A stretch of 64,000 nucleotides of DNA. It comes from Alphaproteobacteria bacterium. GTDB taxonomy: Bacteria; Pseudomonadota; Alphaproteobacteria; MPNO01. The notes under the pieces were generated by a model. The model was not told the origin of the DNA. It did no database searches and was given only the letters and a program-made list of their open reading frames with translations. Every line of letters starts with the position of its first letter. Position 1 is the first letter of the stretch. The stretch spans positions 19,233 to 83,232 of the forward strand of contig OZ242200.1 in the NCBI GenBank assembly GCA_965205995.1, read 5' to 3'. The position numbers and the translations under genes were made by a program. Of the stretch, positions 984 through 17,698 are shown piece by piece.

Positions 984-1649
984 CTAACCGGTGAAAGCGA
1001 AATCCGGCCCGCCCGCCGCGACCACGCGGCGGAGCGCGGCGAGCGCCCGGCGATAATCCAGCGCCAGCGCGGCCAGCGCCGGGAGTTCGCCCGGCCGCTT
1101 GCACAGCTCGACGAGAACCCGGGCGCGCCGCCTGCCGCGGGAGGCGAGCGCCGATGCCGGGACGCTTCGCCCCGCCGGGTCGGCGATCGCGCGGATGGCG
1201 ATCGCCGGCAGCCCGGCCCCGGCCACCGCGTGGCTTTCCATGTCGACGGCGGCGGCGCCCGAGGATGCGGCGAGCGCGGCCTTGGCGGCGGCGTCCGCGA
1301 CCGGCGCGTCGGCCCCGGCGATCGGCGCGCGGATGACGGGCAGCGCGGGCGCCAGCGCGGCGGCGAGCCGGTCCGCCCATTCGCCGGCGATGCCGAGCGG
1401 GCCGCCGTCCGGAGCGACGATGCCGGTGGCGATCACCACCGTCCCCGGAGGCAGCCCGGGATCTAGCCCGCCGGCGACGCCGAAGCTCACCAGCCCGGCG
1501 GCGCCCCACTCGACCAGGGACTCCGCGTGGGACCGCGCCCGTTCCGGCGAGGCGTTGCAGCAGAGGATCCGGATGTTGTCGCCGCCGCGCGCCGCCCGGG
1601 CTTCTCCAGGAAGGCCGGTGACGATCCCCAGACGCCGCGCCGGGCTCAC
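984..1649 (-). CDS. hpnG: hopanoid-associated phosphorylase HpnG (PNP/MTA-SAH nucleosidase family)
   Basis: C-terminal ~220 aa of the 409-aa ORF (VVSPARRLGIVTGLPGEARAARGGDNIRILCCNASPERA...AAVDMESHAVA) match nucleoside phosphorylase fold; likely GTG start overlapping shc TGA (GTGA); immediately downstream of shc as in hpn loci. N-terminal 190 aa of the ORF is antisense overlap with shc and rejected. Confidence 0.65.
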   Translation of the reverse strand: MSPARRLGIVTGLPGEARAARGGDNIRILCCNASPERARSHAESLVEWGAAGLVSFGVAGGLDPGLPPGTVVIATGIVAPDGGPLGIAGEWADRLAAALAPALPVIRAPIAGADAPVADAAAKAALAASSGAAAVDMESHAVAGAGLPAIAIRAIADPAGRSVPASALASRGRRRARVLVELCKRPGELPALAALALDYRRALAALRRVVAAGGPDFAFTG

Positions 1650-3661
1650 AACCCGAAGGGCGAGGTCTTGGCGGTGCCGCCGATGAGCCGACGATAGCGC
1701 GCCAGCGCGAGGATCGGGAAATAGGCGCTGTAGCCGTGATACCGGAGATAGAAGACGCGGGGAAAGCCGACCGCGTTGGTATGGTCGTCGCGCCAGGTGC
1801 AGCCGTCCCGCGGCGCGTCGAGCAGATATTCGATGCCGCGCCGCGCCGCCGCGCCGTCGACCTCGCCGGCGGCCATCAAGGCGAGCACCGCCCAGGACGT
1901 CTGGCTCGGTGTCGAGGAATGGGCCTCGGCGCGCCGGCCCGGCCAGTAGACCGCGCCGTTCTCGCCCCAGCCGCCGTCTGCGCGCTGCCGCCCTTCCAGC
2001 CAGCGGACCGCGCGGCGGATATGGGGCGCCGAGGGATCCTCCTCCAGCGCGTTGAGCGCGGTGAGAACGCACCAGGTGCCGTAGACATAGTTCATGCCCC
2101 AGCGCCCGTACCAGGAGCCGTCCTCCTCCTGTTCGCGGATCAGGAAGTCGATGCCGCGCGCCACGGCCGGGTCGTCGCGCGTTCGGCCGAGTTGCCCGAG
2201 CATGCCGATGCAACGCGCGGTCACGTCCGATGTCGGCGGGTCGAGCATCGCGCCGTGGTCGGCGAAGGGGATGCGGTTGAGATAGTCCTTGGTGTTGTCG
2301 ATGTCGAACGAGCCCCAGCCGCCATTGGAGCTCTGCATGCCGGCGACCCAGGTGGCGCCGCGGCGGATCGCTTCACCGGCGCCCTCCGGCCGGGCGCGGT
2401 CGAGCGCCATGACGACGACCGAGCTGTCGTCGGTGTCGGGGTAGTGCTCGTTGCGGTATTCGAACGCCCAGCCGCCGGGTTCGAGCCCGGGACGGTCGCG
2501 CGCCCAATCGCCCCTGGTATCGGTGATCTGTTCGTCCAGCAGCCAGGAAGAGGCGCGCCTGGCGGCGGTCTCGTTGTCCTCGCCGCCGGTCTCCATCAGG
2601 GCGTGCGCCGCGAGCGCGGTATCCCAGGTCGGCGACAGGCAGGGCTGGCAGATGGTCTCCCCGTTCTCCACCGCGAGCAGCCGCCGCACCGCGGCCAACG
2701 CATCGACGAACAGCGGATCGTCCCTGGCATGGCCCAGCGCGCGAAACGCCATCGCCGCATAGGCCATCGCCGGGAAGATGCCGCCGATCCCGTGGTCGCC
2801 GTTGCGCCGTTCGACGATGAACGCCAGCGCCCGGTCGAGGGCGCGCCGCTTCAGCGCGGCCGGGACGAGGGGAAGCGCGAGGCGGAGCGCCCGGTCGACC
2901 CCGAGGAAGAACCTGGCGAGCAGCCCCCTGGTGGACGGGACCAGCGCCGGGCAGTGCCGCCACGGGTCGGCCGCGAACAGCTCGCCGATGCCGGTCTCCC
3001 GCGGGTTGGCCGCGCGCGGCCGGCGGTCGAGCACCACCAGGAGGGGCACGATCGTCGTGCGCGACCAGTAGGACACCTTGTCGAGGTGGATCGGGAACCA
3101 GCGCGGCAGCAGCAGGATTTCCAGCGGCATCGCCGGCACCGCGCGCCACGGCAACTGCCCGAACAGCGCCAGCGCGATGCGGGTGAACACGTTGCACCGC
3201 GCGGCGCCGCCCCGTTCGAGGATCGCCGTCCGCGCCATTCTCATATGCGGCGCGTCCGGGTCGTCGCCGACGCATTTCAGGGCGAAATAGGCCTTTACGG
3301 ACGCGCTGACATCGGTCTCGCCGTCATGATAGAGCGGCCAGCCGCCGTCGGCGCCCTGGCGGCTGCGGATATAGGCGGCGATCCGGGCCTCCACCCCGTC
3401 GTCGATCTCGTCGATGAAATGCTCGAGCAGGACATATTCGGCGGGGATCGTCACATCGGCTTCGAGGGGGAATGCCCAGTGACCGTCGGCCTTCTGGCGG
3501 GCGCGCAAGGAAGCTGCGGCGTGTCCGACTTCCCGGTCGATACGCGCTGCCAGCCCCTTCGGACCGGGGTCGGTCGCCGCGGCCGGCGCCGGCCGCGCTG
3601 CCCCCGCGGCGACGTCTTCATGCGCGTATTCTTCCACCCGGCCCCCTTCCAAACGCCCCAC
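1646..3661 (-). CDS. shc: squalene-hopene cyclase
   Basis: 671 aa; QW-type repeats (GGWG, DGGW, DGSW), conserved DxDDTA-like region (DTDDSSVVVMALD), overall terpene cyclase architecture; GTG start. Confidence 0.9.
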   Translation of the reverse strand: MGRLEGGRVEEYAHEDVAAGAARPAPAAATDPGPKGLAARIDREVGHAAASLRARQKADGHWAFPLEADVTIPAEYVLLEHFIDEIDDGVEARIAAYIRSRQGADGGWPLYHDGETDVSASVKAYFALKCVGDDPDAPHMRMARTAILERGGAARCNVFTRIALALFGQLPWRAVPAMPLEILLLPRWFPIHLDKVSYWSRTTIVPLLVVLDRRPRAANPRETGIGELFAADPWRHCPALVPSTRGLLARFFLGVDRALRLALPLVPAALKRRALDRALAFIVERRNGDHGIGGIFPAMAYAAMAFRALGHARDDPLFVDALAAVRRLLAVENGETICQPCLSPTWDTALAAHALMETGGEDNETAARRASSWLLDEQITDTRGDWARDRPGLEPGGWAFEYRNEHYPDTDDSSVVVMALDRARPEGAGEAIRRGATWVAGMQSSNGGWGSFDIDNTKDYLNRIPFADHGAMLDPPTSDVTARCIGMLGQLGRTRDDPAVARGIDFLIREQEEDGSWYGRWGMNYVYGTWCVLTALNALEEDPSAPHIRRAVRWLEGRQRADGGWGENGAVYWPGRRAEAHSSTPSQTSWAVLALMAAGEVDGAAARRGIEYLLDAPRDGCTWRDDHTNAVGFPRVFYLRYHGYSAYFPILALARYRRLIGGTAKTSPFGL

Positions 3662-3738
3662 AACTTGCCCGGATCACGCAACCCATTGGTGCGTAACCCT
3701 AAATGTAGCACTGAGTCTTGTCCATGATCGCCGGCGAA

Positions 3739-4593
3739 TCAGCCCAACACCCCGTATCTGAGCGCGATCAGGATTTTCTCCGGCCGGGAGATGCGGACCG
3801 GGGTTTCGAGGTGCGACCAGCCCCTGCGTTCGAGCTCCCCGAGCACGCGGCGGTAGTTCATCATCATCGCCCGGGCGGGGCGAAGCGCCCGGCGGTCGCA
3901 GGCGCGGAACGCCGTCTCCGCCTCGGCGAAGCGGGCGCGCGCGATCCGGGCGAGCGCCTGGCAAGCCTCGGGGATCGCCGGATGGCGCAGGGTCTCGCGC
4001 GGCGTTGCGATCTCGATTGCCGCCTCGTCGAGCAATTCGCGCGGCAGGTAGAGCCGGTCCCGCTCCGCGTCCTCGATCAGGTCGCGGAGGATATTGGTGA
4101 GCTGCAGCGCCGTGCCGAGCGACAGCGCGAAGGACTGTTCCGCCGGCCCCGCGGCGCCGAAGGCGCGGATCGCGAGCAGCCCGACGGCGCCCGCCACCCG
4201 GTGGCAGTAAAGCTCCAGCTCCGCCAGAGCCGGCGCCCTGAGCCCGTCGCCCGCATCCATCCGCATCCCCTCGATCACCGCGAGGAAATCCTCGCGGCGC
4301 AGCCCGAACCGGCGCACCGGCTCGGCCAGGGCGCGGGCGGTGAGCTGCGCCGGGGCGCCGGCATAGAGCGCGTCGATCTCGTTGCGCCACAAATCGAGGC
4401 GGCGGCGCTTCTCGTCGGGCGCGTCCTCGCCGTCGGCGATATCGTCGACCTCGCGGCAGAACGCGTAGATCGCCAACATCGCCTCGCGGCGCCGCCGCGG
4501 CATCAGGCGCATCGCCCAGTAGAACGATGTGCCGGAGGCGGCGGTGACGGCGCGGACATGCGCCTTTGCCCGACCATCGGTTCCGGAATCCAT
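3739..4593 (-). CDS. hpnD: presqualene diphosphate synthase HpnD (squalene/phytoene synthase family)
   Basis: 284 aa; SFYWAMRLMP...AIYAFCREVDDIADG and second Asp-rich region LQLTNILRDLIEDAERDRLYLP typical of trans-isoprenyl diphosphate synthase head-to-head family, HpnD-like signature YAFCRxVDDIAD. Confidence 0.8.
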   Translation of the reverse strand: MDSGTDGRAKAHVRAVTAASGTSFYWAMRLMPRRRREAMLAIYAFCREVDDIADGEDAPDEKRRRLDLWRNEIDALYAGAPAQLTARALAEPVRRFGLRREDFLAVIEGMRMDAGDGLRAPALAELELYCHRVAGAVGLLAIRAFGAAGPAEQSFALSLGTALQLTNILRDLIEDAERDRLYLPRELLDEAAIEIATPRETLRHPAIPEACQALARIARARFAEAETAFRACDRRALRPARAMMMNYRRVLGELERRGWSHLETPVRISRPEKILIALRYGVLG

Positions 4594-4764
4594 CCATCAC
4601 AACTATTGCCCCGCGCGGCGATTCGCAATAGCCCGCTCGCGGCAACCGCCGCCGGAAAACCGCGCCCCGCCGGCACCGAGCCGCTTGACCCGGATGCCGC
4701 GGAGCCTATCGTAACGCTGCAACGACGTTTCACATATGAAATGCCTCCAGGCGGGAACCGCGCC

Positions 4765-4998
4765 ATGCCCGTAACAGATTACGAACCGGGAAATATTCGG
4801 CACCAGACCCAGGTCGACGCGGCGCCGGGAGATTATGCGGCGGCGCTGACCGACCGGCTGGAGGAGATTTTCGGGCGCGGCATCCACGATCTCGACGGCA
4901 TCGTCGGGGCGCTCAACCAGGACGGGCCGGCCCCGGAAGGCGCGGAGAGCTGGACCGCGGAACTCTTCGAGGCCGAGATGACGCGGCTCGGCCCGTAA
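4765..4998 (+). CDS. small hypothetical protein (77 aa) translationally coupled to the Rieske oxygenase gene
   Basis: In-frame ATG at 4765 (alternative ATG 4741) to TAA at 4998; high GC3 codon usage; stop 14 nt before the Rieske gene start with GGGGAGG RBS between; MPVTDYEPGNIRHQTQVDAAPGDYAAALTDRLEEIFGRGIHDLDGIVGALNQDG... Confidence 0.35.
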   Translation: MPVTDYEPGNIRHQTQVDAAPGDYAAALTDRLEEIFGRGIHDLDGIVGALNQDGPAPEGAESWTAELFEAEMTRLGP

Positions 4999-5011
4999 GG
5001 GGAGGATCGGG

Positions 5012-6043
5012 ATGGAGATATCCGATGCCGGGACGCTGTTCGATCTCGGCGTGCGCAACCGCTGGTACGCGATTGCCGCGAGCTGGATGATCGAGGATCG
5101 GCCGGTCGCGCTGACGCGGCTCGGCGAGCGCATCGTCGTCTGGCGCGACGAAGACCGGGTCCAAGTGCTCGCCGACCGCTGCCCGCATCGCGGCGCGCAG
5201 CTCTCGAAGGGCTGGAATCTCGGCGACCGCCTGGCCTGCTGGTATCACGGGCTGGAGGTCGACGGCACCGGCACCGTGGTCGCGATGCCGGCGATCGGCG
5301 ACTGCCCGCTGGTCGGCACGAGGGCGGTGAAATCCTACCCCGCCTTCGAGCATATGGGCGGCATCTTCGCCTATTTCGGCGACGCGCTGCATCCCGAGCC
5401 GGTGCCGTTCGAATACCCCGAGGAGCTGCGCTCGCCGGAATGGAGCGCGATCCTCTGCACCTCGCATTGGCGCTGCAACTACCGCTACGCGATCGACAAC
5501 GTGATGGACCCGATGCACGGCGCCTATCTGCACGCCGAATCGCATTCCATGGGGCGCGGCGACAAGGACGCGAGGATGCGGATCCGCGAGACCGAGCACG
5601 GGCTGATGTTCGAAAAGACCAACCAGCGCGGGGTCAATTTCGACTGGGTCGAGTTCGCCGATACCGGGGCGCAGTGGATGCGGCTCTCGATCCCCTATCA
5701 GCGCAATGCCGGGCCGGGCGGCGCCTTCGGCATCGTCGGCTTCGTCACCCCGATCGACAGCGACAATTGCCGCGTCTTCTTCTGGCGCACCCGCAAGGTG
5801 GCGGGCTGGGAGCGTTCGGTCTGGCGGTTCATGTACAAGCACAAGCTGGAGACCCTGCACTGGGAGGTGCTGGAGCAGGACCGCATCCTCCTCGAAGGCA
5901 TGCCGAGCGACGCGCGCGACCACGAATTCCTCTACCAGCACGACACCGGGATGGCGCGCGTCCGGCGGCTGATCGAGGACGAAGCCGAACGCCAGGCCGC
6001 CGCGCTGGCGGCCGACGGCACCGCCGCCGAGGCGGCCGAATAG
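5012..6043 (+). CDS. Rieske [2Fe-2S] non-heme iron oxygenase alpha subunit, VanA/TsaM-like monooxygenase class
   Basis: 343 aa; Rieske motif CPHRGAQLS...17 aa...CWYHG; N-terminal NRWYAIA like VanA-type oxygenases; catalytic domain with His/Asp ligands (DPMHGAYLH). Confidence 0.85.
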   Translation: MEISDAGTLFDLGVRNRWYAIAASWMIEDRPVALTRLGERIVVWRDEDRVQVLADRCPHRGAQLSKGWNLGDRLACWYHGLEVDGTGTVVAMPAIGDCPLVGTRAVKSYPAFEHMGGIFAYFGDALHPEPVPFEYPEELRSPEWSAILCTSHWRCNYRYAIDNVMDPMHGAYLHAESHSMGRGDKDARMRIRETEHGLMFEKTNQRGVNFDWVEFADTGAQWMRLSIPYQRNAGPGGAFGIVGFVTPIDSDNCRVFFWRTRKVAGWERSVWRFMYKHKLETLHWEVLEQDRILLEGMPSDARDHEFLYQHDTGMARVRRLIEDEAERQAAALAADGTAAEAAE

Positions 6044-6052
6044 GAGGACGCC

Positions 6053-6550
6053 ATGGAGACCGCGACCGGCCGCAGCCTCGCCGACTGGATGGAGGCCCGC
6101 ATCGCCCGCTACGACACCCGGCGCTACGACTGGGACGCGCTCAAGTTCCAGGCCGATTACGATCCCAAATACCGGCGCGCGCAGATGCGCTATCTCGGCA
6201 CCGGCGGCACCGGGGTGACGGACGATTCCAACGCCGTGCCGTCGGAACATTTCACCTTCTCGACCATGGTGCTGCCGCCCGGCTGCGAGGGGCCGTCGCA
6301 TGTCCATGACGACGTAGAGGAGGTGTTCTTCATGCTGCGCGGCAGGATCCGCCTGACGCTGGAGCGCGACGGCGAGAGCTTCGAGACCGAGCTCGGCGAG
6401 CGCGATCTGATCTCGGTGCCGCCCGGGGTCTATCGCGGGCTGGTCAACGAAGGCGAGGAGGAGGCGCTGATGTGCGTGATGCTGGGCGCCTCCAGGCCGC
6501 GCATCCCGACCTACCCGCCCGACCACCCGCTCGCCAGGATCAAGCGCTAG
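6053..6550 (+). CDS. cupin domain protein
   Basis: 165 aa; cupin motifs PPGCEGPSHVHDDVEEVFFMLRG ... ISVPPGVYRG; AGGAGG RBS. Confidence 0.7.
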   Translation: METATGRSLADWMEARIARYDTRRYDWDALKFQADYDPKYRRAQMRYLGTGGTGVTDDSNAVPSEHFTFSTMVLPPGCEGPSHVHDDVEEVFFMLRGRIRLTLERDGESFETELGERDLISVPPGVYRGLVNEGEEEALMCVMLGASRPRIPTYPPDHPLARIKR

Positions 6551-6551
6551 C

Positions 6552-7406
6552 GTGGCCCTGCCGCCGCTCGAGACCGTCGAACGGCACGGCCGGCGGATCG
6601 CCTGGCGCGCGGCCGGGGAGGGGCCGCCGGTCCTGCTGCTGCACGGTATCGGCTCGGGCTCGGCTTCCTGGGAGGCGCAGCTCGACGCGCTCGCCGGGCG
6701 CTACCGGGCGATCGCCTGGGACGCGCCGGGCTATGGCGGCTCGGACCCGCTGCCCGGCGACACCCCGCCTTCGGGCGCCTATGGCGACGCGGTGGCCGAC
6801 CTCCTCGACGGGCTCGGGATCGGGCGCGTCAACCTGGTCGGCCATTCCCTCGGCGGGCTGATCGCGGCGTCCTTCGCCGCCCGCCACCCCCAACGGCTCG
6901 CGAGCCTCACACTGTCGGACGCGGCGGCGGGGTATCTGAATTCCCCCGAGGAAATCCGCGTCGGCCGGCTGAACGCCCGCGTCGAGGCGATGACCACGCT
7001 CGGCCCGGCGGAGGTCGCCAAGCGGCGCGCCCGCGAGGTGCTCGCCCCCGGCGCGCCCGACGAAACTTACGAGAAGGTGCGCGCGGTGCAGAGCCGGGTT
7101 CGCCCCGAAGGCTACGCCCAGGCCGCGCGGATGCTGCATGGCTCGGACATCTTCGCCGACGCCGCCTGGATCCGCGGGCCGGTGCTGGTGATGTATGGCA
7201 GCGAGGACAAGGTGACGCCCGAGGCGATCGGCCGCGACATCGCCGCCGCGATTCCGGGCGCGCGCTACCTCACCCTCGAAGGCCTCGGCCATGCGAGCTA
7301 TGTCGAGGGGCCGGCGGCGTTCAACGCCGCGCTCACCGGATTCCTGGACGGGGCCGGAACGAGCGGCGACCGCCCCCCGTCCCCGGCCGCCGCGCCGGCT
7401 GGGTAG
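6552..7406 (+). CDS. alpha/beta hydrolase
   Basis: 284 aa; HGIGSGSASW oxyanion region and GHSLGG nucleophile elbow; GTG start 2 nt after cupin stop. Confidence 0.8.
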   Translation: MALPPLETVERHGRRIAWRAAGEGPPVLLLHGIGSGSASWEAQLDALAGRYRAIAWDAPGYGGSDPLPGDTPPSGAYGDAVADLLDGLGIGRVNLVGHSLGGLIAASFAARHPQRLASLTLSDAAAGYLNSPEEIRVGRLNARVEAMTTLGPAEVAKRRAREVLAPGAPDETYEKVRAVQSRVRPEGYAQAARMLHGSDIFADAAWIRGPVLVMYGSEDKVTPEAIGRDIAAAIPGARYLTLEGLGHASYVEGPAAFNAALTGFLDGAGTSGDRPPSPAAAPAG

Positions 7407-7411
7407 GAACG

Positions 7412-8206
7412 GTGGATCTCGGGCTTGCGGACAAGGTGGCGGCGATCACCGGCGGGTCGTCGGGGATCGGCCTGGCGGCGGCGCGGATCTTCCTCGAGGA
7501 GGGCGGCCGGGTGGCGATCTGCGGCCGGTCCAGCGAACGGCTGGCCGGCGCCGAACGGGCGCTCGCCGGGCCGCACGGCGCGGACCGGGTGCTGGCGGTC
7601 GCCTGCGACGTTACCGATCCGGTCCAGGTGGCGGCGTTCCGCGACCGCGTGGCGGCGCGCTTCGGCCGCTCCGACATCTTGATCGCCAATGCCGGCCAGG
7701 CGCGCCGCGGCGGGTTCGACGACCTCGCCGACGACGAGTGGCGCGCCGAGCTCGACCTCAAATTCTTCTCCGTCCTGCACCCGGTGCGCGCCTTCCGGAA
7801 GCTGCTCGAAGCGGCCGCGCCGTCGGCCATCGTCTGCACCAGCGCCCTGCTCGCGCGCCGACCCGAGCCGTGGCTGATCGCGACTTCGGCCGCCCGCGCC
7901 GGCGTGCTGAACCTCGCCAAGTCGATGAGCCGCGACTTCGCGCCCAAGGGAATCCGCGTCAACTCCGTCCTGATCGGGCTGGTCGATTCGGGGCAGTGGA
8001 ACCGCCGCCACGAAGAGGGCGCGGGCGCCGGGAAGAGCAAGCAAGAGTGGTTCGCCGCGCTCGCCGCGGAGCGAGGCATTCCGCTCGGCCGGCTCGGCGA
8101 GGCCGACGAGGCGGCCAGGGTGATCGTCTTTCTCGCCTCTCCCGCGGCGAGCTATCTGACCGGCGAGACGATCGAGGTCGCGGGGGGGCAGGGGCATCAT
8201 GTCTGA
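7412..8206 (+). CDS. SDR family NAD(P)-dependent oxidoreductase
   Basis: 264 aa; TGGSSGIG Rossmann motif, NAG motif (ANAGQ), catalytic S...YxxxK-type region. Confidence 0.85.
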   Translation: MDLGLADKVAAITGGSSGIGLAAARIFLEEGGRVAICGRSSERLAGAERALAGPHGADRVLAVACDVTDPVQVAAFRDRVAARFGRSDILIANAGQARRGGFDDLADDEWRAELDLKFFSVLHPVRAFRKLLEAAAPSAIVCTSALLARRPEPWLIATSAARAGVLNLAKSMSRDFAPKGIRVNSVLIGLVDSGQWNRRHEEGAGAGKSKQEWFAALAAERGIPLGRLGEADEAARVIVFLASPAASYLTGETIEVAGGQGHHV

Positions 8207-9845
8207 GCGGGTTGCGGCGGGCGAAATCGTCGCCGCGTTTCTCGAAGCCGCCGGGGTGGACGCCGCCTTCGGGGTGATCTCGATCCACAACATGCCGATG
8301 CTCGATGCGATCGGGCGGCGCAACCGCATCCGCTTCGTGCCGGCCCGCGGCGAGGCCGGCGCGGTCAACATGGCCGATGCCCACGCGCGCGTCTCCGGCG
8401 GGCTCGGCGTCGCCTTCACCAGCACCGGGACCGGCGCCGGCAATGCCTGCGGCGCGCTGGTCGAGGCGCAGACCGCCGGCACGCCGCTGCTCCATCTGAC
8501 CGGCCAGATCGAAACCGAATATCTCGACCAGGACCGCGGCTATATCCACGAGGCGCGCGACCAGCTGACCATGCTGCGCGGCGCCTCGAAGGCCGCCTTG
8601 CGGGTGCGCAGCGCCGCCGATTTGCCGGGCGCCCTGCGCGAGGCCGCGCGCGTCGCGCAGACCCCGCCCGCCGGCCCGGTGAGCGTCGAGATCCCGGTCG
8701 ACATCCAGGAGGCCTCGCTGGCGAGACCGGCCTCGCTGGCGCCGCTGGCGCCGGCCGATCCCGAACCCGACGCGGCGGCGCTCGATGATCTCGCCGACGC
8801 CCTGGCGGCGGCGCGGCGGCCGATGCTGTGGCTCGGCGGCGGCGCGCGCCGGGCGGGGGCCGAAGCCCGTGCGCTCGCGGGTCTCGGCTTCGGCATCGTC
8901 ACCAGCATCCAGGGGCGGGGCATCGTCGCCGAGGGCGGCCCGATGTCGCTCGGCGCTTGGAACTTCCAGCCGCCGGTCGAGGCGTTCTACGCGACCTGCG
9001 ACGCGATGCTGGTGGTCGGTTCCCGGCTGCGCGGCAACGAGACGCTCAAATACCGGCTCGCTCTGCCGAAACCGCTCTACCGGATCGACGCCGATCCCCG
9101 GGCCGACGGGCGGTCCTTCGCCAACGATATCTTCGTCTGCGGCGACGCGGCGCGGACGATGGCCGGGCTCGCCGCCCGGCTCGGCGGGCGGATGGCGGTC
9201 GACCCGGCGCTCGGCGCCGATCTCGCCGCCGCCCGCGAGGCCGCCGAGGCGGCGCTTCGCCAGACCCTCGGGCCCTACGAACGGCTGATGGACGACCTCC
9301 AGGCGGCGGTCCCCGACGATGTCGTCTGGGTGCGCGACATCACGCTTTCGAACAGCATGTGGGGCAACCGCGCGCCGCGCCTTTCGGGGCCGCGCGACGG
9401 GGTGCATGCGCTCGGCGGCGGCATCGGCCAGGCGCTGCCGATGGCGATCGGCGCCGCGCTCGCCGCGCCCGGGCGCAAGACCGTGGCGCTCGCCGGCGAC
9501 GGCGGGCTCTCGCTTTCGCTCGGCGAGATGTCCACCCTGGTGCAGGAGCGCGCCGATGTCGCCCTCATCGTGATGAACGACGGCGGCTACGGGGTGATCC
9601 GCAACATCCAGGACCGCAGCTTCGGCGGGCGAAACCTCTATACCGACATCGCGCTCCCCGATCTCGCGGCGCTCGCCGGCGGGCTCGGCCTGCCGTTCCG
9701 CCGCGTCGGCGATGCCGACGGCATGCGGCCGGCGCTCGACTGGGCGATCGCCGAGGACGGCCCGGCGATGGTCGAGATCGACATGACCGCAATCGGCCCC
9801 TTCGCGGCCCCCTTCGCCGGCCCGCCGGTGCGGGCGAAGGGATGA
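8199..9845 (+). CDS. thiamine diphosphate-dependent enzyme (acetolactate synthase/benzoylformate decarboxylase family)
   Basis: 548 aa; N-terminal Pyr domain, central domain, C-terminal PP domain with GDGG...N ThDP-Mg motif (LAGDGGLSLSLGEMSTL...MNDGGYG); 8-nt overlap with SDR. Confidence 0.85.
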   Translation: MSERVAAGEIVAAFLEAAGVDAAFGVISIHNMPMLDAIGRRNRIRFVPARGEAGAVNMADAHARVSGGLGVAFTSTGTGAGNACGALVEAQTAGTPLLHLTGQIETEYLDQDRGYIHEARDQLTMLRGASKAALRVRSAADLPGALREAARVAQTPPAGPVSVEIPVDIQEASLARPASLAPLAPADPEPDAAALDDLADALAAARRPMLWLGGGARRAGAEARALAGLGFGIVTSIQGRGIVAEGGPMSLGAWNFQPPVEAFYATCDAMLVVGSRLRGNETLKYRLALPKPLYRIDADPRADGRSFANDIFVCGDAARTMAGLAARLGGRMAVDPALGADLAAAREAAEAALRQTLGPYERLMDDLQAAVPDDVVWVRDITLSNSMWGNRAPRLSGPRDGVHALGGGIGQALPMAIGAALAAPGRKTVALAGDGGLSLSLGEMSTLVQERADVALIVMNDGGYGVIRNIQDRSFGGRNLYTDIALPDLAALAGGLGLPFRRVGDADGMRPALDWAIAEDGPAMVEIDMTAIGPFAAPFAGPPVRAKG

Positions 9846-9879
9846 GCGGACCCTTCGTTACGCGCCGGGGAACAAGCCC

Positions 9880-10677
9880 ATGCTGAAAATCGTCCTGATC
9901 GGCCGCGGCGCGATCGCCACCGAGGTGCTGGTACATATCCGGCCCGGCGCCGGGGTGAGCGTCACCGGCGCGATCGTCCGTCCCGGCCGGGTGGCCGACG
10001 CCCGTGCCGCCCTGCCGCCGGCGATCGAGGTGGCGAGCGCCATCGGCGATCTCGCGACCGCGCCCGACCTGATCGCCGAATGCGCCGGGCACGCGGCGGT
10101 TGCCGAATACGGCGAGGAGGCGCTGAGGCGCGGCATCGACTTTCTGGCGATTTCCATCGGCGCGCTCGCCGATGCGGATCTCCGCCGCCGGCTGGAGGCC
10201 GCGGCCGCGGCGGGCGGGGGCAAGCTGATCCTGCCCGCCGGCGCGGTCGCCGGCGCCGATGCCCTGGCGGCGGCGCGAATCGGCGGGCTGGAGCGCGTCG
10301 TCTACACCTCGCGCAAGCCGCCGGCGGCGTGGCGCGGAACCCCGGCCGAGGCGGCGCACGACCTCGACGCGCTTGTCGAGGCGACCGTGCTGTTCGAGGG
10401 CCCGGCGGATGCGGCGGCCACGCTCTACCCGCAGAACGCCAACGTGGCCGCCACCATCGCGCTCGCCGGCGCCGGGTTCGACCGCACCGAGGTCCGGCTG
10501 GTCGCCGACCCGGCGGCCGGCGGCAATATCCACACCGTCCGCGCCGAGGGGGCGTTCGGCGCCTTCGACATCGAAATCCGCGGCAAGCCGCTCCCCGACA
10601 ACCCGAAGACCTCGACGCTCGCCGCCCACAGCGTGGTCGCCGAGATCCTGCGCCGCGCCGCCGCAATGGAGATCTAG
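9880..10677 (+). CDS. aspartate dehydrogenase family protein (NadX-like)
   Basis: 265 aa; N-terminal Rossmann IGRGAIA, length and C-terminal region typical of L-aspartate dehydrogenase domain proteins. Confidence 0.65.
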   Translation: MLKIVLIGRGAIATEVLVHIRPGAGVSVTGAIVRPGRVADARAALPPAIEVASAIGDLATAPDLIAECAGHAAVAEYGEEALRRGIDFLAISIGALADADLRRRLEAAAAAGGGKLILPAGAVAGADALAAARIGGLERVVYTSRKPPAAWRGTPAEAAHDLDALVEATVLFEGPADAAATLYPQNANVAATIALAGAGFDRTEVRLVADPAAGGNIHTVRAEGAFGAFDIEIRGKPLPDNPKTSTLAAHSVVAEILRRAAAMEI

Positions 10678-10696: not shown

Positions 10697-10796
10697 GCCC
10701 TTCGATACGCCCGCTGCGCGGGCTACTCAGGATGAGGGGAATCAAATGTCCTCATCCCGTGTAGCCCCGGACTTGATCCGGGGCGTATCGAGGGAC
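10697..10796. repeat. palindromic intergenic repeat element, copy A (full length, inverted orientation relative to copies C/E)
   Basis: GCCCTTCGATACGCC...GGGCTACTCAGGATGAGGGG-loop-CCTCATCCCGTGTAGCCCCGGACTTGATCCGG...GGCGTATCGAGGGAC; imperfect hairpin with terminal inverted arms; family recurs through window. Confidence 0.8.
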
Positions 10797-10991: not shown

Positions 10992-11714
10992 ATGAACTAT
11001 CGACGTTGGACAGCGGCCGCCGCGGTGAGCGCCGCAATCGTTTCCTTCAGCGGCGCCGGGATGGCCCAGAACCGCGACGGCGGGTTCTATGCGTCGCTGA
11101 CCGGGCTCCTTGTGATCCCGCGGGATTCCGAGTCTTCGGGCAAGAGGGAGGTGCGCGGCGCCAGGCGCGACGTCAGCGTGGAGCTCATGGCAAAAAGCGG
11201 TTTCGGGGTGCTCGCCGCCGCCGGTTACGAGATGTCGTCCAGATTGCGGGCCGAGCTCGAACTGGGCTATCGCGGATACGAATTCGACAAGGCGAAGGTA
11301 AAGGTCGACCCGCCCATAGTGCCCGTTCGAGACAAGGGGCACTGGGTGGACGGACCCGTAGACGGGGACTTCAGTACGTTGAGTGTGATGGCGAATGGCA
11401 TCTACAGCTTCCGGCGGGGCAAGCTCCGCCCCTATGCCGGGCTTGGCGTGGGGTTGGCGCGGCACACCTTGAATCTCGAACGGATAACCTACGAGATAAA
11501 CGGCAGGACAGTCTTGGGGCCGTCCGGTGGCCCGGAAGAAGATTCGACGGTGCTCGCCTACCAGGCCATGGCGGGAATAGGCTATGCGCTGTCCGACAAT
11601 GCGGAGGTCCGACTGGGATACCGCTACTTCGCGACCGGAAAGGCCGATTTCAACGGCGATGAATTCTCCTACGGCACCCACAACTTCGAGATCGGGCTGC
11701 TCTACCGGTTCTGA
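10992..11714 (+). CDS. outer membrane beta-barrel protein, Omp25/Omp31/OmpA-like transmembrane domain family
   Basis: 240 aa; signal peptide ending AGMAQ, alternating amphipathic beta strands, C-terminal GLLYRF; AAGGAG RBS. Confidence 0.8.
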   Translation: MNYRRWTAAAAVSAAIVSFSGAGMAQNRDGGFYASLTGLLVIPRDSESSGKREVRGARRDVSVELMAKSGFGVLAAAGYEMSSRLRAELELGYRGYEFDKAKVKVDPPIVPVRDKGHWVDGPVDGDFSTLSVMANGIYSFRRGKLRPYAGLGVGLARHTLNLERITYEINGRTVLGPSGGPEEDSTVLAYQAMAGIGYALSDNAEVRLGYRYFATGKADFNGDEFSYGTHNFEIGLLYRF

Positions 11715-11779: not shown

Positions 11780-12002
11780 GGCCCCCACCCGGCATTTCGA
11801 CCGCTCCGCCGTGCCCTGCACGGCTGGCCACCCCCCGCGGCATAACGCCGCGTCGCCGCAAAGAGTGACGCCAAGCCCCGCCGACAGCCGGTAATATATG
11901 TCTTCCCGGGATCGTCCCCGGGGACAGGCAGGACATGTTGGCGCTTGGCGGCCGGATCGGCATTCTCGCCGGATCCATCGCAACCTCAAGGAGAAACCGG
12001 AG

Positions 12003-12704
12003 ATGGACATTCGACGCTGGGCGGTCGTCGCTGCGACGGCCGCGGCAATCGTCTGCCTCGGCGGTACCGGGATGGCCCAGGACCGCGAAGGCGGTTTCTA
12101 TGCGTCGATGACGGGGCTGTTGTCCCTGCCGCGGGATACCCAAAGGAAAGAGGAGCTCGACGGTCACGCCCTGACCCATGGCTATTCCATGAAGAACGGC
12201 ATGGCGTTCGTCGTCGCCGGCGGCTACATCCTGCCCTCCGGGCTGCGGACCGAGCTCGAGCTGGGCTTTCGCCGCACCGAATTCGACAAGGTGCGGAAGA
12301 TCGAAATCCGCGGCCCCGACCGCAACGTGGTGGCCCACGGGGCTCTTCCCATCGACGGGCGGTTCACCACCTTCAGCGTCATGGGCAACGCCACATACGG
12401 CACCGAGCTGGGGAGGTTCCGCCCCTATGTCGGGGGCGGCGTGGGATTGGCGCGGCACCAGGCGAAGATCGACTCGATAGCCTACGAAGCCGGCAGCGAT
12501 CTGCCCGCCGCGTCGATCGGTTTCTCGGAAAATGCGACGGTGTTCGCCTTTCAACTCATGGCGGGGATCGGCTATCCGCTTTCCGAGCAGGCGGAGATGT
12601 GGCTGGGCTATCGCTACTTCGAGACCGCGGACGCCGACTTCCGGGTCAGCGAAATGACCTTCAGCACCCACAATTTCGAGCTCGGGCTGCTCTACAAGTT
12701 CTGA
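12003..12704 (+). CDS. outer membrane beta-barrel protein, Omp25/Omp31-like (tandem paralog)
   Basis: 233 aa; MDIRRWAVVAATAAAIVCLGGTGMAQ signal peptide, same architecture and C-terminal GLLYKF; ORF-track upstream extension rejected in favour of ATG with AAGGAGA RBS. Confidence 0.8.
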   Translation: MDIRRWAVVAATAAAIVCLGGTGMAQDREGGFYASMTGLLSLPRDTQRKEELDGHALTHGYSMKNGMAFVVAGGYILPSGLRTELELGFRRTEFDKVRKIEIRGPDRNVVAHGALPIDGRFTTFSVMGNATYGTELGRFRPYVGGGVGLARHQAKIDSIAYEAGSDLPAASIGFSENATVFAFQLMAGIGYPLSEQAEMWLGYRYFETADADFRVSEMTFSTHNFELGLLYKF

Positions 12705-12713
12705 CCGCGCCGC

Positions 12714-12821
12714 GCCCTTCGATACGCCCCGGATCAAGTCCGGGGCTACCCAGGGTGAGGGTGGGGCGGCCAAAAAAATCCCCCTCATCCCGAGTAGGCC
12801 CGCAGGGCCGTATCGAGGGAC
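12714..12821. repeat. palindromic intergenic repeat element, copy C (full length)
   Basis: GCCCTTCGATACGCCCCGGATCAAGTCCGGGGCTACCCAGGGTGAGGG-loop-CCCTCATCCCGAGTAGGCCCGCAGGGCCGTATCGAGGGAC between convergent OMP and DMT genes. Confidence 0.8.
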
Positions 12822-12831
12822 GCCGCTTGCC

Positions 12832-13689
12832 TCAGCGCCGCGCGATGTAGAGCGCGCTGGCGACGATCGTCACCGCGCCGACCCCGGTCCAGACCGACGG
12901 TATCTCGGCGAACATGTAGAAGCCGATCAGGGCGGCGTAGATCAGCCGCAGGTACTCGAACGGCCCGACGAAGCTCGCCTCGCCGACGCAGAAGCCCTGG
13001 ACGAAGCAGACCATCCCGGCGCAGGTCAGCGCGCCGATCAGTGCCAGCAGCGCGAACTGCCCGGCATCGGGCGGCTGCCAGAGCGCGATGCTCGGCCCGG
13101 CGAACATCGCGATCCCGAAGACGTGGTAGTAGAACAGGATGCGGATCGCGGGCTCGGTGGTCGACAGGCGGCGGATGAAGATGATGCCGAGCGCGAACAG
13201 CACTGCCGCCGCCAGCGCGACCGCCCAGGCGATATCGAACGCCACCCCGCCCGGGCGCACCATCACCAGCACGCCGACGAAGCCGAAAGCGGTCGCCGCC
13301 CATCTTTGCCAGCGCACCGCCTCGCCGAGGATCAGCACCGCGAGCAAGGTGAGGAAGAGCGGGCGGCTGAAGGCGACCGCGGTCGCATCGGCGAGGAACA
13401 GATGGATCACCCCGTAATAGACCGCCGCCTGGCCGACCCCGGCGATCATCGCGCGCGCGAAATGGGTGCCGAGCCGCCTCGTGCGCCAGGTCTCGCGCCC
13501 CGCCTTCACGAACCAGGGCATCAACAGGACCATGCCGATGGCGTAGCGGAACAGCGCCATCTGGATCGGGTGGAAATCGGTGCCGAGCGTCTTCACCACC
13601 GCGTCGTTGGCCGACAGGAACAGCGAGCCCACGAGGACCCACACCGCGCCCTGCGCGTTGCCCGGCAAGGCGAGTATCCGCCCGATCAT
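12832..13689 (-). CDS. DMT family transporter (EamA/RhaT-like)
   Basis: 285 aa; 10 predicted TM helices, two EamA-like halves. Confidence 0.8.
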   Translation of the reverse strand: MIGRILALPGNAQGAVWVLVGSLFLSANDAVVKTLGTDFHPIQMALFRYAIGMVLLMPWFVKAGRETWRTRRLGTHFARAMIAGVGQAAVYYGVIHLFLADATAVAFSRPLFLTLLAVLILGEAVRWQRWAATAFGFVGVLVMVRPGGVAFDIAWAVALAAAVLFALGIIFIRRLSTTEPAIRILFYYHVFGIAMFAGPSIALWQPPDAGQFALLALIGALTCAGMVCFVQGFCVGEASFVGPFEYLRLIYAALIGFYMFAEIPSVWTGVGAVTIVASALYIARR

Positions 13690-14555
13690 GCGGCGCCCGG
13701 CGCGCGGCGCCGCGATTCGGCGCGCATTTGCTGGGCCGAGGCCGCGAAGATCACCGCCGCGCCGAGCCAGGTCCAGAGATCCAGCGCCTCGGCGAAGGCG
13801 AACCAGGCGAGCAGCGCGGTCAGCGGCAGCCGCGCGAAGTCGAAGGGGAAGACCGAAATCGCCTCCGCCGCGCGGTAGCTGTTGGTCATCGCGAACTGGC
13901 CGGCATTGGCGACCAGCGCGGTGACCGCCAGCCAGCCGAGCTGTTCGAGCGTCGGCGTCTGCCAGACGAACAGCGCCATCGCGAAGCTGACCGGCACGGT
14001 ATAGGCGATCATGTAGAACACGATGCGCTCGGTCGGCTCGGTCGCCGACAGCCGCTTCACCAGCACCCAGATCACCGCCATGCCGAGGGCGGCGGCGAGC
14101 GGCATCGAGAACTGCCAGTCAACGTCCTTGAAGCCCGGGCGCAGGATGACCAGCACGCCGAGGAAGCCGACGGCGAGCACCGCCGCGCGGCGCAGATCGA
14201 CCGCCTCGCCGAGGAACAGCATCGCCAGCATCGCGCCGAACAGCGGCGCGGTGAAGGTGAGCGAGACCGCGTCGGCGAGCGGCAGGAAGGCGACCGCGAG
14301 GAAGAACGCGGCCTGGGCCACCGCCGAGGCCATGCCACGGCCGAGGAACAGCCCGTGGCGCTCTGTCCGCAACCCCGCCGTGCCGCGCCTGAGGACGAAG
14401 GGGAGGAGCAGCGCCATGCCGATGATGCTGCGGTAGAACGAGGTCATCAGCGGGTGGAAGCCAATCTCCGCGAGATGGCGGATGCAGGCGGTCATGGCGG
14501 AGAAGAAGGCGGCGGCGAGCAGCATCCAGAGCGCGCCGCGCAGCGCCCCCGGCAT
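13686..14555 (-). CDS. DMT family transporter (EamA-like), tandem paralog 2
   Basis: ORF 13686..14681; start trimmed to Met43 (MPGALRGALWMLL...) giving ~290 aa; 4-nt overlap with downstream paralog. Confidence 0.7.
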   Translation of the reverse strand: MPGALRGALWMLLAAAFFSAMTACIRHLAEIGFHPLMTSFYRSIIGMALLLPFVLRRGTAGLRTERHGLFLGRGMASAVAQAAFFLAVAFLPLADAVSLTFTAPLFGAMLAMLFLGEAVDLRRAAVLAVGFLGVLVILRPGFKDVDWQFSMPLAAALGMAVIWVLVKRLSATEPTERIVFYMIAYTVPVSFAMALFVWQTPTLEQLGWLAVTALVANAGQFAMTNSYRAAEAISVFPFDFARLPLTALLAWFAFAEALDLWTWLGAAVIFAASAQQMRAESRRRAPGAA

Positions 14556-14586
14556 GCGGTCGAACAGATCCCGCAACGCAAGGGCC

Positions 14587-15531
14587 TTACCGGTCACGGC
14601 GCCGCTCGGCCGCCGATTCGCCCCGCGCCAGCAGGATCGAGGATACGCAGATCGCCCCGGCCCCGGCCCACACCCAGACATCCGGGATCTCGGCGAAGAA
14701 CAGGTAGCCTATCAGGGCGGCGATCGGCAGACGGATATAGTCGAACGAAACCACGACGGAGGCATCCGCGGCATGGAAGGCGCGGGCAAGGCAGCGCTGG
14801 CTGAAGGTGCCGAACACGCCGATCGCGACCAGATAGGGAAGGTGGTCGAGGCGCGGCCATTGCCAGACCGCGACCGCCGGCCCGGCGGAGAACAGCAACA
14901 GGAACAGCACCATGTACATCGCCATGGAGTCGGGCGAATCGTAACGCACGATATAGCGCGCCAGGATCGCATGCGTTGCCCCCACCAGCACCACCCCGAG
15001 GGCCAGGAAGACGCCCGGATTGAGCTCCGTGAAGCCGGGGCGGATGATGATCGTTGCGCCGACGATGCCGACCGCGATGGCGATCCAGCGCCTGGCCCGC
15101 GACTTCTCGCCGAGGATCACGATGGCGAGCAGGGTCGCCACCACCGGCCGGATGAAGGTGATCGCCGTGATATCGGCGATCGGCAGCAGGGTGACCGCGT
15201 AGAAGACGCAGAGCAGCCCGGCATAGCTGAGCGCGGTGCGCAGCACGTGGAAGTGGAGCTTGCGGGTCGCCATCGCCGCCACGCCGCGCCGCGCGAGCCA
15301 GGGGGCCATGGCGAGGAGGCCGAAGGCGGCGCGCCAGAAGACCACCAGAAGCACGTGGAGCTCGTCGGTCACCAGCCGCGACAGCGCCATCATCAGCAGG
15401 AAAAGCGTGCCCGCGGAGCTGAGCCAGAACGCGGCGCGCACGGCGCCCGGAAGGCCATGGAAGGAGGCGACGCGGCCGGCAAAATTCAAATCGGTCTTCC
15501 GTCTTGCGGCGAGGGCCCGGGACCCTACCAT
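14587..15531 (-). CDS. DMT family transporter (EamA-like), tandem paralog 3
   Basis: ORF 14587..15834 trimmed to Met102 (MVGSRALAARRK...), ~314 aa; N-terminal 100 aa of ORF is low-complexity and rejected. Confidence 0.65.
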   Translation of the reverse strand: MVGSRALAARRKTDLNFAGRVASFHGLPGAVRAAFWLSSAGTLFLLMMALSRLVTDELHVLLVVFWRAAFGLLAMAPWLARRGVAAMATRKLHFHVLRTALSYAGLLCVFYAVTLLPIADITAITFIRPVVATLLAIVILGEKSRARRWIAIAVGIVGATIIIRPGFTELNPGVFLALGVVLVGATHAILARYIVRYDSPDSMAMYMVLFLLLFSAGPAVAVWQWPRLDHLPYLVAIGVFGTFSQRCLARAFHAADASVVVSFDYIRLPIAALIGYLFFAEIPDVWVWAGAGAICVSSILLARGESAAERRRDR

Positions 15532-15540
15532 GCGGGCGGC

Positions 15541-16374: not shown

Positions 16375-16401
16375 CCAAGGCTTGACCAAGCGCGCCGCGA
16401 C

Positions 16402-16425
16402 GGCCCTTCGATACGCGGCTGCGCT
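16402..16425. repeat. palindromic repeat fragment D (left arm only)
   Basis: GGCCCTTCGATACGCGGCTGCGC downstream of SDR stop. Confidence 0.4.
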
Positions 16426-16503
16426 CTTTTGCCGCGGCTCCATCGCGCGACCGTCGCACGGCGCGGCGCTAGTCTCCGCCCCGGTCAACCGCGCGGAGGG
16501 ACG

Positions 16504-17565: not shown

Positions 17566-17591
17566 CCGGGCGCCGGTCTCCGCGCCTGCCG

Positions 17592-17692
17592 GCCCTTCGA
17601 TACGCCCCGGATCAAGTCCGGGGCTACTCAGGGCGAGGGAATTTCTTTGGCCTCATCCCGAGTAGGTCTCGAAGGGACCGTATCGAGGAACC
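17592..17692. repeat. palindromic intergenic repeat element, copy E (full length)
   Basis: GCCCTTCGATACGCCCCGGATCAAGTCCGGGGCTACTCAGGGCGAGGG-loop-CCTCATCCCGAGTAGGTCTCGAAGGGACCGTATCGAGGAAC between convergent Sel1 and hydrolase genes. Confidence 0.8.
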
Positions 17693-17698
17693 CGCCGG

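Follow-up and report, generated by a model that had tools for sequence, protein, structure and literature searches.

Catabolic operons initiated by an oxygenase are of a familiar kind, and among the closest described systems to the one treated here are the meta-cleavage pathways with Rieske or extradiol front ends, Hca/Mhp (3-phenylpropionate), Hpa (homoprotocatechuate) and Car (carbazole), which likewise combine a Rieske oxygenase and an HcaD-type reductase with an HpaD-like dioxygenase of the VOC family, an HpaE-like aldehyde dehydrogenase (ALDH) and an alpha/beta hydrolase. Two further enzymes have so far been studied in isolation: L-aspartate dehydrogenases (AspDHs), which are used in biotechnology and are specific for aspartate/oxaloacetate in vitro in the case of the enzymes from K. 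pneumoniae, Delftia, P. aeruginosa and R. eutropha (PMC5554190), and the short-chain dehydrogenase/reductase (SDR) Q9HYA2 of P. aeruginosa, whose unexplained TxxxR centre is mentioned in a passage of PMC8659612 citing Huether et al. (2010). Members of both types now turn out to share one co-conserved operon, represented by seven genes at positions 4765–10677 of a 64-kb stretch of alphaproteobacterial DNA (contig OZ242200.1; the entire stretch is referred to as the window), which makes the natural role of the Q9HYA2-type SDR and of the mesophilic AspDHs directly testable. The operon is a lineage-specific reduction of a widespread orphan cluster, neither a new invention nor a member of a characterized pathway.

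A sequence-only reading of the window had already pointed out these genes as a compact co-directional cluster that matches no named pathway. Its domain calls are right according to Pfam and NCBIfam, and the lack of a named pathway is borne out by searches of the literature, NCBIfam and PDB, which yielded no paper, fitting specific equivalog model or substrate-bearing structure that would give the cluster a substrate; among the NCBIfam models for specific functions, none was reached by any of the seven proteins, except that for AspDH by the last one. Homology and neighborhood comparisons, as that reading had proposed them, reveal strongly co-conserved genes and no characterized operon. However, the combination is found well beyond this genome, and the version present here is a trimmed derivative of a common cluster of 12–15 genes.

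The seven-gene operon and its widespread relatives

The genes were called from a listing of open reading frames (ORFs) together with Pfam and NCBIfam searches in a region of about 70% G+C. All of them lie on the plus strand, and they are predicted to code for a protein of 77 amino acids of the HTH_62 family (g1, 4765–4998, PF20552, with an alternative in-frame ATG at 4741), the alpha subunit of a phthalate/VanA-type oxygenase with Pfam Rieske and VanA_C domains and without a beta subunit (g2, 5012–6043), a single-domain cupin of 165 amino acids (g3, 6053–6550, Pfam Cupin_2), a PcaD-like alpha/beta hydrolase with a GTG start (g4, 6552–7406, Pfam Abhydrolase_1), an atypical SDR (g5, 7412–8206, NF005468), a thiamine diphosphate (ThDP) enzyme of the PRK07064 family with three TPP domains (g6, 8199–9845, Pfam and NF005470), and an AspDH of the NadX family (g7, 9880–10677, Asp_DH_C and NAD_binding_3 domains, NF009828/NF009827). 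They are separated by 13, 9, 1, 5, -8 (an overlap) and 34 nt from g1 to g7, essentially the spacing of 2–35 nt or overlaps reported before, and most of them are preceded by Shine-Dalgarno-like sequences. The seven genes form one real operon, and their grouping goes beyond chance because synteny is kept across 80 loci.

The only promoter-like site between 4400 and 11100 is a sigma-70-like candidate on the plus strand (TTGACC-16-TATCGT, 4685..4712; a match to the consensus only, with a mean of 0.2 sites in shuffled sequences), which lies in the divergent intergenic region between a squalene/phytoene synthase gene and g1. A search of the plus strand gave no canonical intrinsic terminator, and Rfam gave no riboswitch or other RNA in the operon region. 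Directly 3' of g7, the palindromic repeat noted on the right flank is real and corresponds to an element at 10699..10794 that resembles repetitive extragenic palindromic (REP) sequences, with inverted-repeat arms of 14 nt and 93% complementarity. Its sub-motifs CCCGGACTTGATCCGGGGC and CTACTCAGGATGAGG recur at 12726–12744, 17604–17622 and 45246–45265, compared to 0–0.06 occurrences expected from shuffles, and intergenic copies of the REP-like type stand 3' of the operon and of each of two downstream outer membrane protein (OMP) genes. As judged from its sequence and position, the element at 10699–10794 may serve as terminator or mRNA stabilizer.

All seven genes are intact and under purifying selection. 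The ratios of nonsynonymous to synonymous substitutions (dN/dS) are 0.09–0.36 for all of them in comparison with three loci of the same seven-gene layout (L001–L003, 77–96% protein identity), and the catalytic motifs of the Rieske, hydrolase, ThDP and AspDH proteins are preserved; therefore, the operon is kept by selection and does not represent a remnant.

Scanning genomes with an alignment of the Rieske protein, counting one genome as one species, returned at least 599 stretches, at least 593 of which contain a Rieske relative. The species concerned include opportunistic pathogens (Burkholderia cepacia complex, A. baumannii, K. pneumoniae), fluorescent pseudomonads and environmental alphaproteobacteria, and the carriers extend over further Acinetobacter, Klebsiella and Pseudomonas as well as Novosphingobium, Aromatoleum, Stutzerimonas and Cupriavidus, while Vibrio has the set without the Rieske gene. 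Linkage was counted for the best 80 of the at least 593 loci by tblastn with the seven proteins plus extra proteins from Acinetobacter and Paraburkholderia, many of the absences being due to contig ends. The Rieske gene is linked there to those for the cupin (74 of the 80), the hydrolase (70), the ThDP enzyme (69), the g5-type SDR (58) and AspDH (55), and in addition to genes for a second, canonical SDR (SDR1, 72), IclR regulators (67), a VOC extradiol dioxygenase (57), ALDH (49) and a ferredoxin reductase (46). The usual cluster thus defined is of a catabolic type and has spread both vertically and horizontally. Besides the IclR regulators, the full clusters contain porins (Porin_4, OprD), importers of the MFS, TRAP or NMT1-type ABC kind, an HcaD-like or FNR/Fer2 reductase, a Rieske ferredoxin, an HpaD-like VOC dioxygenase and an HpaE/BADH-like ALDH. 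The cluster reductase is HcaD-like with 318 bits, HpaD is the nearest named relative of the VOC protein, the ALDH is close to HpaE and StyD, and SDR1 resembles glucose/FabG-type SDRs, unlike the known cis-diol dehydrogenases. An NMT1-type ABC importer is encoded directly 5' of the Rieske gene in 19 loci; a PDB search with the binding protein from the Pseudomonas cluster gave no liganded relative.

The gene order varies between groups. Burkholderiales typically show IclR-HTH_62-Rieske-SDR1-cupin-hydrolase-IclR-SDR-ThDP-AspDH-ALDH-VOC-reductase, Acinetobacter and Klebsiella (ferredoxin)-HTH_62-Rieske-SDR1-(IclR)-VOC-reductase-MFS-cupin-hydrolase-SDR-AspDH-ALDH-ThDP-(OprD), and Pseudomonas, Stutzerimonas and Aromatoleum ABC(NMT1)-SDR1-cupin-hydrolase-IclR-SDR-ThDP-AspDH-ALDH-VOC-HTH_62-Rieske-(RidA)-FNR/Fer2 reductase, with the exception that the cupin gene of Aromatoleum is separate, upstream and on the opposite strand. 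A Vibrio plasmid carries the order cupin-hydrolase-VOC-SDR-ThDP-AspDH-ALDH without a Rieske gene. The assumption that P. aeruginosa possesses the lower genes without a Rieske gene was dropped, since other pseudomonads have the HTH_62, Rieske and reductase genes at the 3' end of the operon. Pseudomonas and Stutzerimonas clusters (L084, 17020–20017; L087, 15770–18751) further contain a RidA gene (Ribonuc_L-PSP) between those for the Rieske protein and the reductase, an unannotated ORF of 105 amino acids 5' of the HTH_62 gene, and a pair of LysR and Lyase_1/FumaraseC_C (aspartase/fumarase-like) genes upstream of the cluster (L084, 223–2746). In Klebsiella aerogenes LR134124.1 (L081), a cluster of 15 genes, among them those for a Rieske ferredoxin and an OprD porin, occupies 13338–27457 between speB and yggG/tktA. 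It looks like an inserted island, because the gene order of E. coli K-12 at this place presumably lacks the cluster. In the same assembly, the ALDH and reductase genes are split, as are speA and endA outside the cluster. The nadX gene of Klebsiella sits within the cluster, and its product is 51% identical to g7. As to expression, A. baumannii A1S_0956-0958, encoding AspDH, ALDH and an 'acetolactate synthase', are induced about twofold by mucin.

Compared to these clusters, the window contains a reduced version. Throughout the 64 kb, tblastn with Acinetobacter, Paraburkholderia and Pseudomonas proteins revealed no homologs of SDR1, IclR, ALDH, VOC, reductase, ferredoxin, RidA or importers, the only matches being generic SDRs of at most 33% identity. 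The previous statement that reductase and ferredoxin genes are missing thus holds for the whole window, and that on the absence of a regulator holds for classical ones and is otherwise uncertain, because g1 is an HTH-fold protein. Among the best 80 of the at least 593 loci, the reduced seven-gene form is common only to the window and L001–L003, which belong to Defluviicoccus-like alphaproteobacteria; ThDP homologs 87% identical to g6 are likewise labelled Defluviicoccus. More distant alphaproteobacterial relatives retain SDR1 with or without IclR, usually without VOC, ALDH and reductase genes within 4–10 kb, and at no fewer than eight alphaproteobacterial loci, one of them in the window, the VOC dioxygenase is absent within this distance. 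Alphaproteobacteria thus have a type of the cluster without VOC, from which the branch of the window additionally lost SDR1 and IclR. In marine VOC-less clusters, a CMD/AhpD-like gene directly follows the AspDH gene (L012, 10298–10921; L016, 16872–17498), and a GroEL paralog comes next.

Features of the encoded proteins

The small protein g1 matches PF20552 ('recombinase-like helix-turn-helix') with 68 bits at a cut-off of 27, and its dN/dS values against L001–L003 are 0.18–0.19. It contains no cysteine and is therefore no ferredoxin. A single-sequence AlphaFold2 model shows a three-helix bundle (pLDDT 71) without significant neighbors in PDB, the best match having an E-value of 1.4. Genes of this type occur directly 5' of the Rieske gene in Burkholderia, Acinetobacter, Klebsiella, Novosphingobium, Pseudomonas and Aromatoleum. 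The Rieske protein g2 (Pfam Rieske 69.6 bits, VanA_C 53.8 bits) has a complete [2Fe-2S] motif, C57-P-H59...C76-W-Y-H79, and a mononuclear iron motif, D166-x2-H169-x4-H174, which is invariant in the alignment of the family. Identities between family members are 59% or higher, even among alpha-, beta- and gammaproteobacteria. The relatives in PDB are distant, with E-values of about 1e-20 for DdmC and CarAa, that of DdmC (3e-20) applying to the N-terminal half only, and no homolog of the HcaD-like, FNR/Fer2 or Rieske-ferredoxin types, which might act as cognate electron donors, was detected for g2 in the window.

The cupin is the most conserved component of the cluster, with 66–96% identity to the orthologs in alpha-, beta- and gammaproteobacterial clusters. 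Cupin motif 1, G-x5-H-x-H-x3-E, is present at residues 77–97, and the histidine of motif 2 is replaced (PPGVYRGLVN), leaving a site of the 2-His-1-Glu type. Matches in PDB are weak (OxdC, 2e-6; 3-hydroxyanthranilate dioxygenase, 4e-4), and the single-sequence AlphaFold2 model was too poor to be used (pLDDT 49); as judged from its motif, g3 is a putative enzyme dependent on Fe(II) or another metal, for which we propose a dioxygenase function. The hydrolase g4 exhibits the nucleophile elbow G-H-S99-L-G, and in PDB it is most similar to 3-oxoadipate enol-lactonase (2xua, E-value 5e-28), with the C-C hydrolases HsaD and BphD coming next. Its score against the PcaD equivalog TIGR02427 is 136 bits, below the cut-off of 255.85.

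The SDR g5 passes the generic family model NF005468 (PRK07062) with 358.6 bits at a cut-off of 266 and is the ortholog of Q9HYA2 (PDB 3LF1/3LF2; E-value 2.4e-79 for 3lf1). It has T158-x3-R162 instead of the catalytic YxxxK motif, and TxxxR is found in all orthologs aligned, while SDR1 retains YxxxK.

The ThDP enzyme g6 scores 819 bits against its own generic family model NF005470 (PRK07064, cut-off 495) and contains the ThDP-Mg motif GDG-x25-ND. The next-best NCBIfam models are PRK08266 and the 5-guanidino-2-oxopentanoate decarboxylase family (AruI, NF005712), the latter scoring 286 bits and thus below its cut-off of 500, and the relatives in PDB have E-values of 1e-48 or weaker. By similarity, the nearest named relatives of g6 are 2-oxo-acid decarboxylases of the AruI family, to which it is related without being a member, which revises the earlier classification as a C-C lyase/ligase. 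In the full clusters, the genes for the ThDP enzyme and ALDH are at most one gene apart. The AspDH g7 passes both equivalog models, NF009827 (286.8 versus 226 bits) and NF009828 (308.9 versus 177), its N-terminal NAD(P)-binding Rossmann stretch reads LIGRGAIA, and H218 in an 'NIH' motif corresponds to the catalytic histidine of the T. maritima enzyme (H193 of TM1643). We therefore predict g7 to be an L-aspartate dehydrogenase, with the specificity for aspartate and oxaloacetate taken from its homologs, of which those studied in Klebsiella and P. aeruginosa belong to a genus or species with the cluster.

Proposed pathway and rival explanations

The co-occurrence of the Rieske oxygenase with a reductase, usually an extradiol dioxygenase and an HpaE-like ALDH in the full clusters is a hallmark of ring hydroxylation followed by cleavage. 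The operon may represent, with the chances for and against about balanced, a reduced version of a widespread catabolic pathway in which an aromatic or N-heteroaromatic carboxylate is degraded oxidatively via a 2-oxo acid, releasing aspartate or iminoaspartate. The Rieske oxygenase g2 would hydroxylate the anionic substrate, with electrons from a reductase encoded elsewhere and with the assistance of g1 as its constant small partner, and the 2-His-1-Glu cupin g3 would catalyze an oxygenolytic C-C cleavage. The PcaD-like g4 might then split the cleavage product by hydrolysis of an ester or amide bond or of a vinylogous C-C bond, the TxxxR SDR g5 might reduce an activated C=C or C=O bond next to the 2-oxo acid, and the translationally coupled g6 would decarboxylate the 2-oxo acid to an aldehyde, to be oxidized by the adjacent ALDH in the full clusters. 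The nitrogen-bearing C4 fragment would leave as aspartate or iminoaspartate, which g7 would interconvert with oxaloacetate and ammonia. Such an imine/aspartate node is in keeping with the genes for RidA and an aspartase/fumarase-like protein at some Pseudomonas loci. In the reduced form, the missing second SDR, extradiol dioxygenase, ALDH and reductase might be borrowed from unlinked genes, or the enzymes might act on a simpler, already partly oxidized relative of the substrate of the full cluster.

Several points weigh against this proposal. The order of all steps derives from family membership, and TxxxR SDRs are not known to be catalytically competent. The cupin is only weakly similar to characterized dioxygenases and could be an isomerase or a decarboxylase instead, and g4 stays under every NCBIfam equivalog cut-off. 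As the window contains no reductase, ferredoxin, second SDR, VOC, ALDH, regulator or importer, the operon may not be self-sufficient. Finally, the specificity of the AspDHs was assayed on few alternative substrates (PMC5554190).

The most detailed assignment would equate the full cluster with the kynurenate ('quinoline') pathway of tryptophan catabolism, for which no genes are known, and the window with a partial copy of it; we regard this as possible, if rather unlikely. Kynurenate degradation in pseudomonads was reportedly worked out by Hayaishi's group in the 1960s, and the use of this compound has been described in fluorescent pseudomonads and Burkholderia, both of which contain the cluster. 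The route (KEGG map00380) leads via the 7,8-dihydrodiol and 7,8-dihydroxykynurenate to 5-(3-carboxy-3-oxopropenyl)-4,6-dihydroxypicolinate, then via the oxopropyl, formylethyl and carboxyethyl derivatives to glutamate or 2-oxoglutarate plus C3/C4 products. The Rieske protein and its reductase would be kynurenate 7,8-hydroxylase (EC 1.14.99.2), SDR1 the 7,8-dihydrodiol dehydrogenase (EC 1.3.1.18) and the VOC protein 7,8-dihydroxykynurenate 8,8a-dioxygenase (EC 1.13.11.10), forming the oxopropenyl compound just named. The TxxxR SDR would reduce the enone, the ThDP enzyme would decarboxylate the product to the formylethyl compound, and ALDH would oxidize the latter to the carboxyethyl compound, a sequence of reactions that matches both the contiguous order SDR2-ThDP-(AspDH)-ALDH, SDR2 being the TxxxR enzyme, and the KEGG intermediates. 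The cupin would open the 4-hydroxy-2-pyridone, which is a beta-dicarbonyl, by an oxygenolytic reaction like that of Dke1, the hydrolase would cut the resulting 2-oxoglutaryl amide, and AspDH with or without RidA would handle iminoaspartate, with 2-oxoglutarate, oxaloacetate or aspartate, NH3 and CO2 as net products. Every step would be supplied with one role per enzyme of the full cluster, and the importers are of the anion type (ACS-family MFS, TRAP, NMT1 ABC). The pathway is known only from the enzymology of the 1960s: a literature search gave no paper assigning genes, and one review cites only the tracer study of 1961. On the other hand, the assignment rests on KEGG intermediates and old physiology, SDR1 is glucose/FabG-like rather than similar to cis-diol dehydrogenases, the Vibrio plasmid version has the VOC gene without a Rieske gene, and at least eight alphaproteobacterial loci have no VOC gene within 4–10 kb, the window lacking SDR1 and ALDH as well and thus three obligatory steps.

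An aromatic amino acid analog with an alanyl side chain (for instance a hydroxylated phenylalanine, m-/o-tyrosine or a DOPA-like compound) appears improbable as the substrate, even if it would be chemically coherent and explain the aspartate directly. The Rieske oxygenase would then form a catechol of the 2,3-dihydroxyphenylalanine type, the cupin or the VOC protein would perform an extradiol cleavage, and g4 would free aspartate for AspDH together with 2-hydroxypentadienoate, similar to the release of succinate by MhpC in the 3-phenylpropionate pathway; the 2-hydroxypentadienoate would be isomerized and then reduced, decarboxylated and oxidized by the SDR, ThDP enzyme and ALDH, respectively, replacing the hydratase/aldolase route, whose genes occur in no cluster examined. 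The kinship of the reductase with HcaD, of the VOC protein with HpaD and of the ALDH with HpaE and StyD is in line with such a pathway, as is the presence of HsaD and BphD among the PDB relatives of g4. However, g4 is nearer to enol-lactonases than to C-C hydrolases, anion-type importers fit less well than amino acid importers would, a cupin and a VOC dioxygenase together are redundant, and a Rieske dioxygenase acting on phenylalanine or tyrosine is without precedent. It is very doubtful, too, that g2 is an N- or O-demethylating (or methyl-hydroxylating) monooxygenase similar to VanA, TsaM or Stc2 that acts on a methylated amino-acid-like or alkaloid-like substrate, in line with the VanA/TsaM-type monooxygenase of the sequence-only reading. 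The VanA_C domain and dicamba O-demethylase as the nearest PDB relative agree with this idea, and the absence of a diol dehydrogenase and an extradiol dioxygenase from the window would suit a monooxygenase, but carbazole and phthalate dioxygenase, which are true dioxygenases, score alike in the PDB search, and the best of the NCBIfam demethylase/monooxygenase equivalogs, SdmA, gives 54.9 bits against a cut-off of 600. Genes for handling formaldehyde are not found nearby, and the ortholog sits together with reductase, VOC and ALDH genes in most genomes, so a demethylase gains no specific support where the full clusters signal ring hydroxylation and cleavage.

Hardly credible, finally, is that the reduced cluster is a decaying remnant without coherent function or takes part in hopanoid or sterol modification beside the shc and hpn genes. 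At least five genes of the canonical cluster have indeed been lost, but the low dN/dS values, the intact motifs and the presence of the reduced layout in four genomes contradict decay. A hopanoid-related function might be read from the divergent neighbors for squalene synthase (SQS) and squalene-hopene cyclase (SHC), kept at nine alphaproteobacterial loci, and from methylsterol monooxygenase as a weak best NCBIfam match of the Rieske protein. Yet the cluster is never located beside hopanoid genes in beta- and gammaproteobacteria, and AspDH and a ThDP decarboxylase are foreign to triterpenoid chemistry; the adjacency is probably inherited synteny and not a functional link, because flanking MFS, CMD, GroEL and EamA genes share it in the marine relatives.

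Neighboring genes and comparison with known systems

On the left side of the operon, the genes for squalene-hopene cyclase and squalene/phytoene synthase lie divergently at 1646–4593 on the minus strand, with the same arrangement in L001–L005, L012, L016, L060 and L068 and with SQS identities down to 50% across the nine alphaproteobacterial loci showing the adjacency. Directly downstream, two tandem paralogous OMP_b-brl genes follow at 10992–11714 and 11898–12704 on the plus strand, where L003 has one homolog, and then three consecutive genes for EamA/DMT transporters at 12832–15834 on the minus strand, which account for the AT skew of 0.3–0.39 at 13–15.5 kb; an EamA gene is also present a few kb downstream of the cluster in the marine relatives L012 and L016. 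Further downstream, a Sel1-repeat protein, another hydrolase and a Mo-hydroxylase are encoded. The large subunit of the latter, a member of the xanthine dehydrogenase family, is encoded at 18550–20880 on the minus strand, at a distance of 8 kb. Although its family comprises hydroxylases of N-heteroaromatic rings, a functional connection with the operon is at present unsupported.

A connection of the cluster to the biology of kynurenate, AspDH and TxxxR enzymes is possible, and the cluster is a concrete candidate for an orphan pathway of 60 years' standing. If the kynurenate assignment were true, the capture of iminoaspartate from a pyridone ring would be the first physiological role for mesophilic AspDHs, the TxxxR SDR class would obtain a substrate, a new cupin would carry out a Dke1-like ring opening, and HTH_62 proteins would function as accessories of Rieske oxygenases. 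For the reduced alphaproteobacterial form, this would mean that the pathway is split or that the operon is a variant for a monocyclic substrate, namely a pyridone or picolinate.

A view on the described systems shows where the cluster resembles them and where it departs. In the kynurenate pathway, the described and deducible steps (EC 1.14.99.2, 1.3.1.18, 1.13.11.10) correspond one-to-one to the enzyme classes of the full cluster, and the end products, a 2-oxo acid, oxaloacetate or aspartate and NH3, would explain why the cluster has an AspDH. Unlike the Hca/Mhp, Hpa and Car systems, it contains a cupin, a TxxxR SDR, a ThDP decarboxylase and AspDH, and no hydratase, aldolase or acetaldehyde dehydrogenase, and its proteins are far under the equivalog cut-offs of those pathways. 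The cluster reported for riboflavin/lumichrome catabolism (PMC12746152) was set aside as a different one, in which the ThDP enzyme has two subunits and the Rieske oxygenase is of the alpha/beta type. The module of AruI and an aldehyde dehydrogenase, or an Ehrlich-type shortening, follows the same logic as the full clusters, from amino acid to 2-oxo acid, aldehyde and acid, but g6 is no ortholog of AruI (286 versus 500 bits), and the amino acid dehydrogenase present here is aspartate-specific in the homologs studied. The NadX proteins of NAD biosynthesis (T. maritima TM1643, A. fulgidus) share fold, catalytic histidine and NCBIfam equivalog with g7, whose gene differs from theirs in being located away from nadA/nadC and inside a catabolic operon, which also holds for the further carriers inspected. 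Closely related is the orthologous cluster of Pseudomonas, Burkholderia/Paraburkholderia, Acinetobacter, Klebsiella, Cupriavidus and Novosphingobium, with P. xenovorans LB400 chromosome 2 and the A. baumannii A1S_0956-0958 region as named examples, which comprises orthologs of all seven genes and includes the SDR Q9HYA2. It shares with the window the TxxxR centre and the local orders HTH_62-Rieske, cupin-hydrolase and SDR-ThDP, at identities of 49–66% for the Rieske protein, 66–75% for the cupin, 35–50% for the hydrolase, 45–59% for the SDR, 48–66% for the ThDP enzyme and 44–56% for AspDH.

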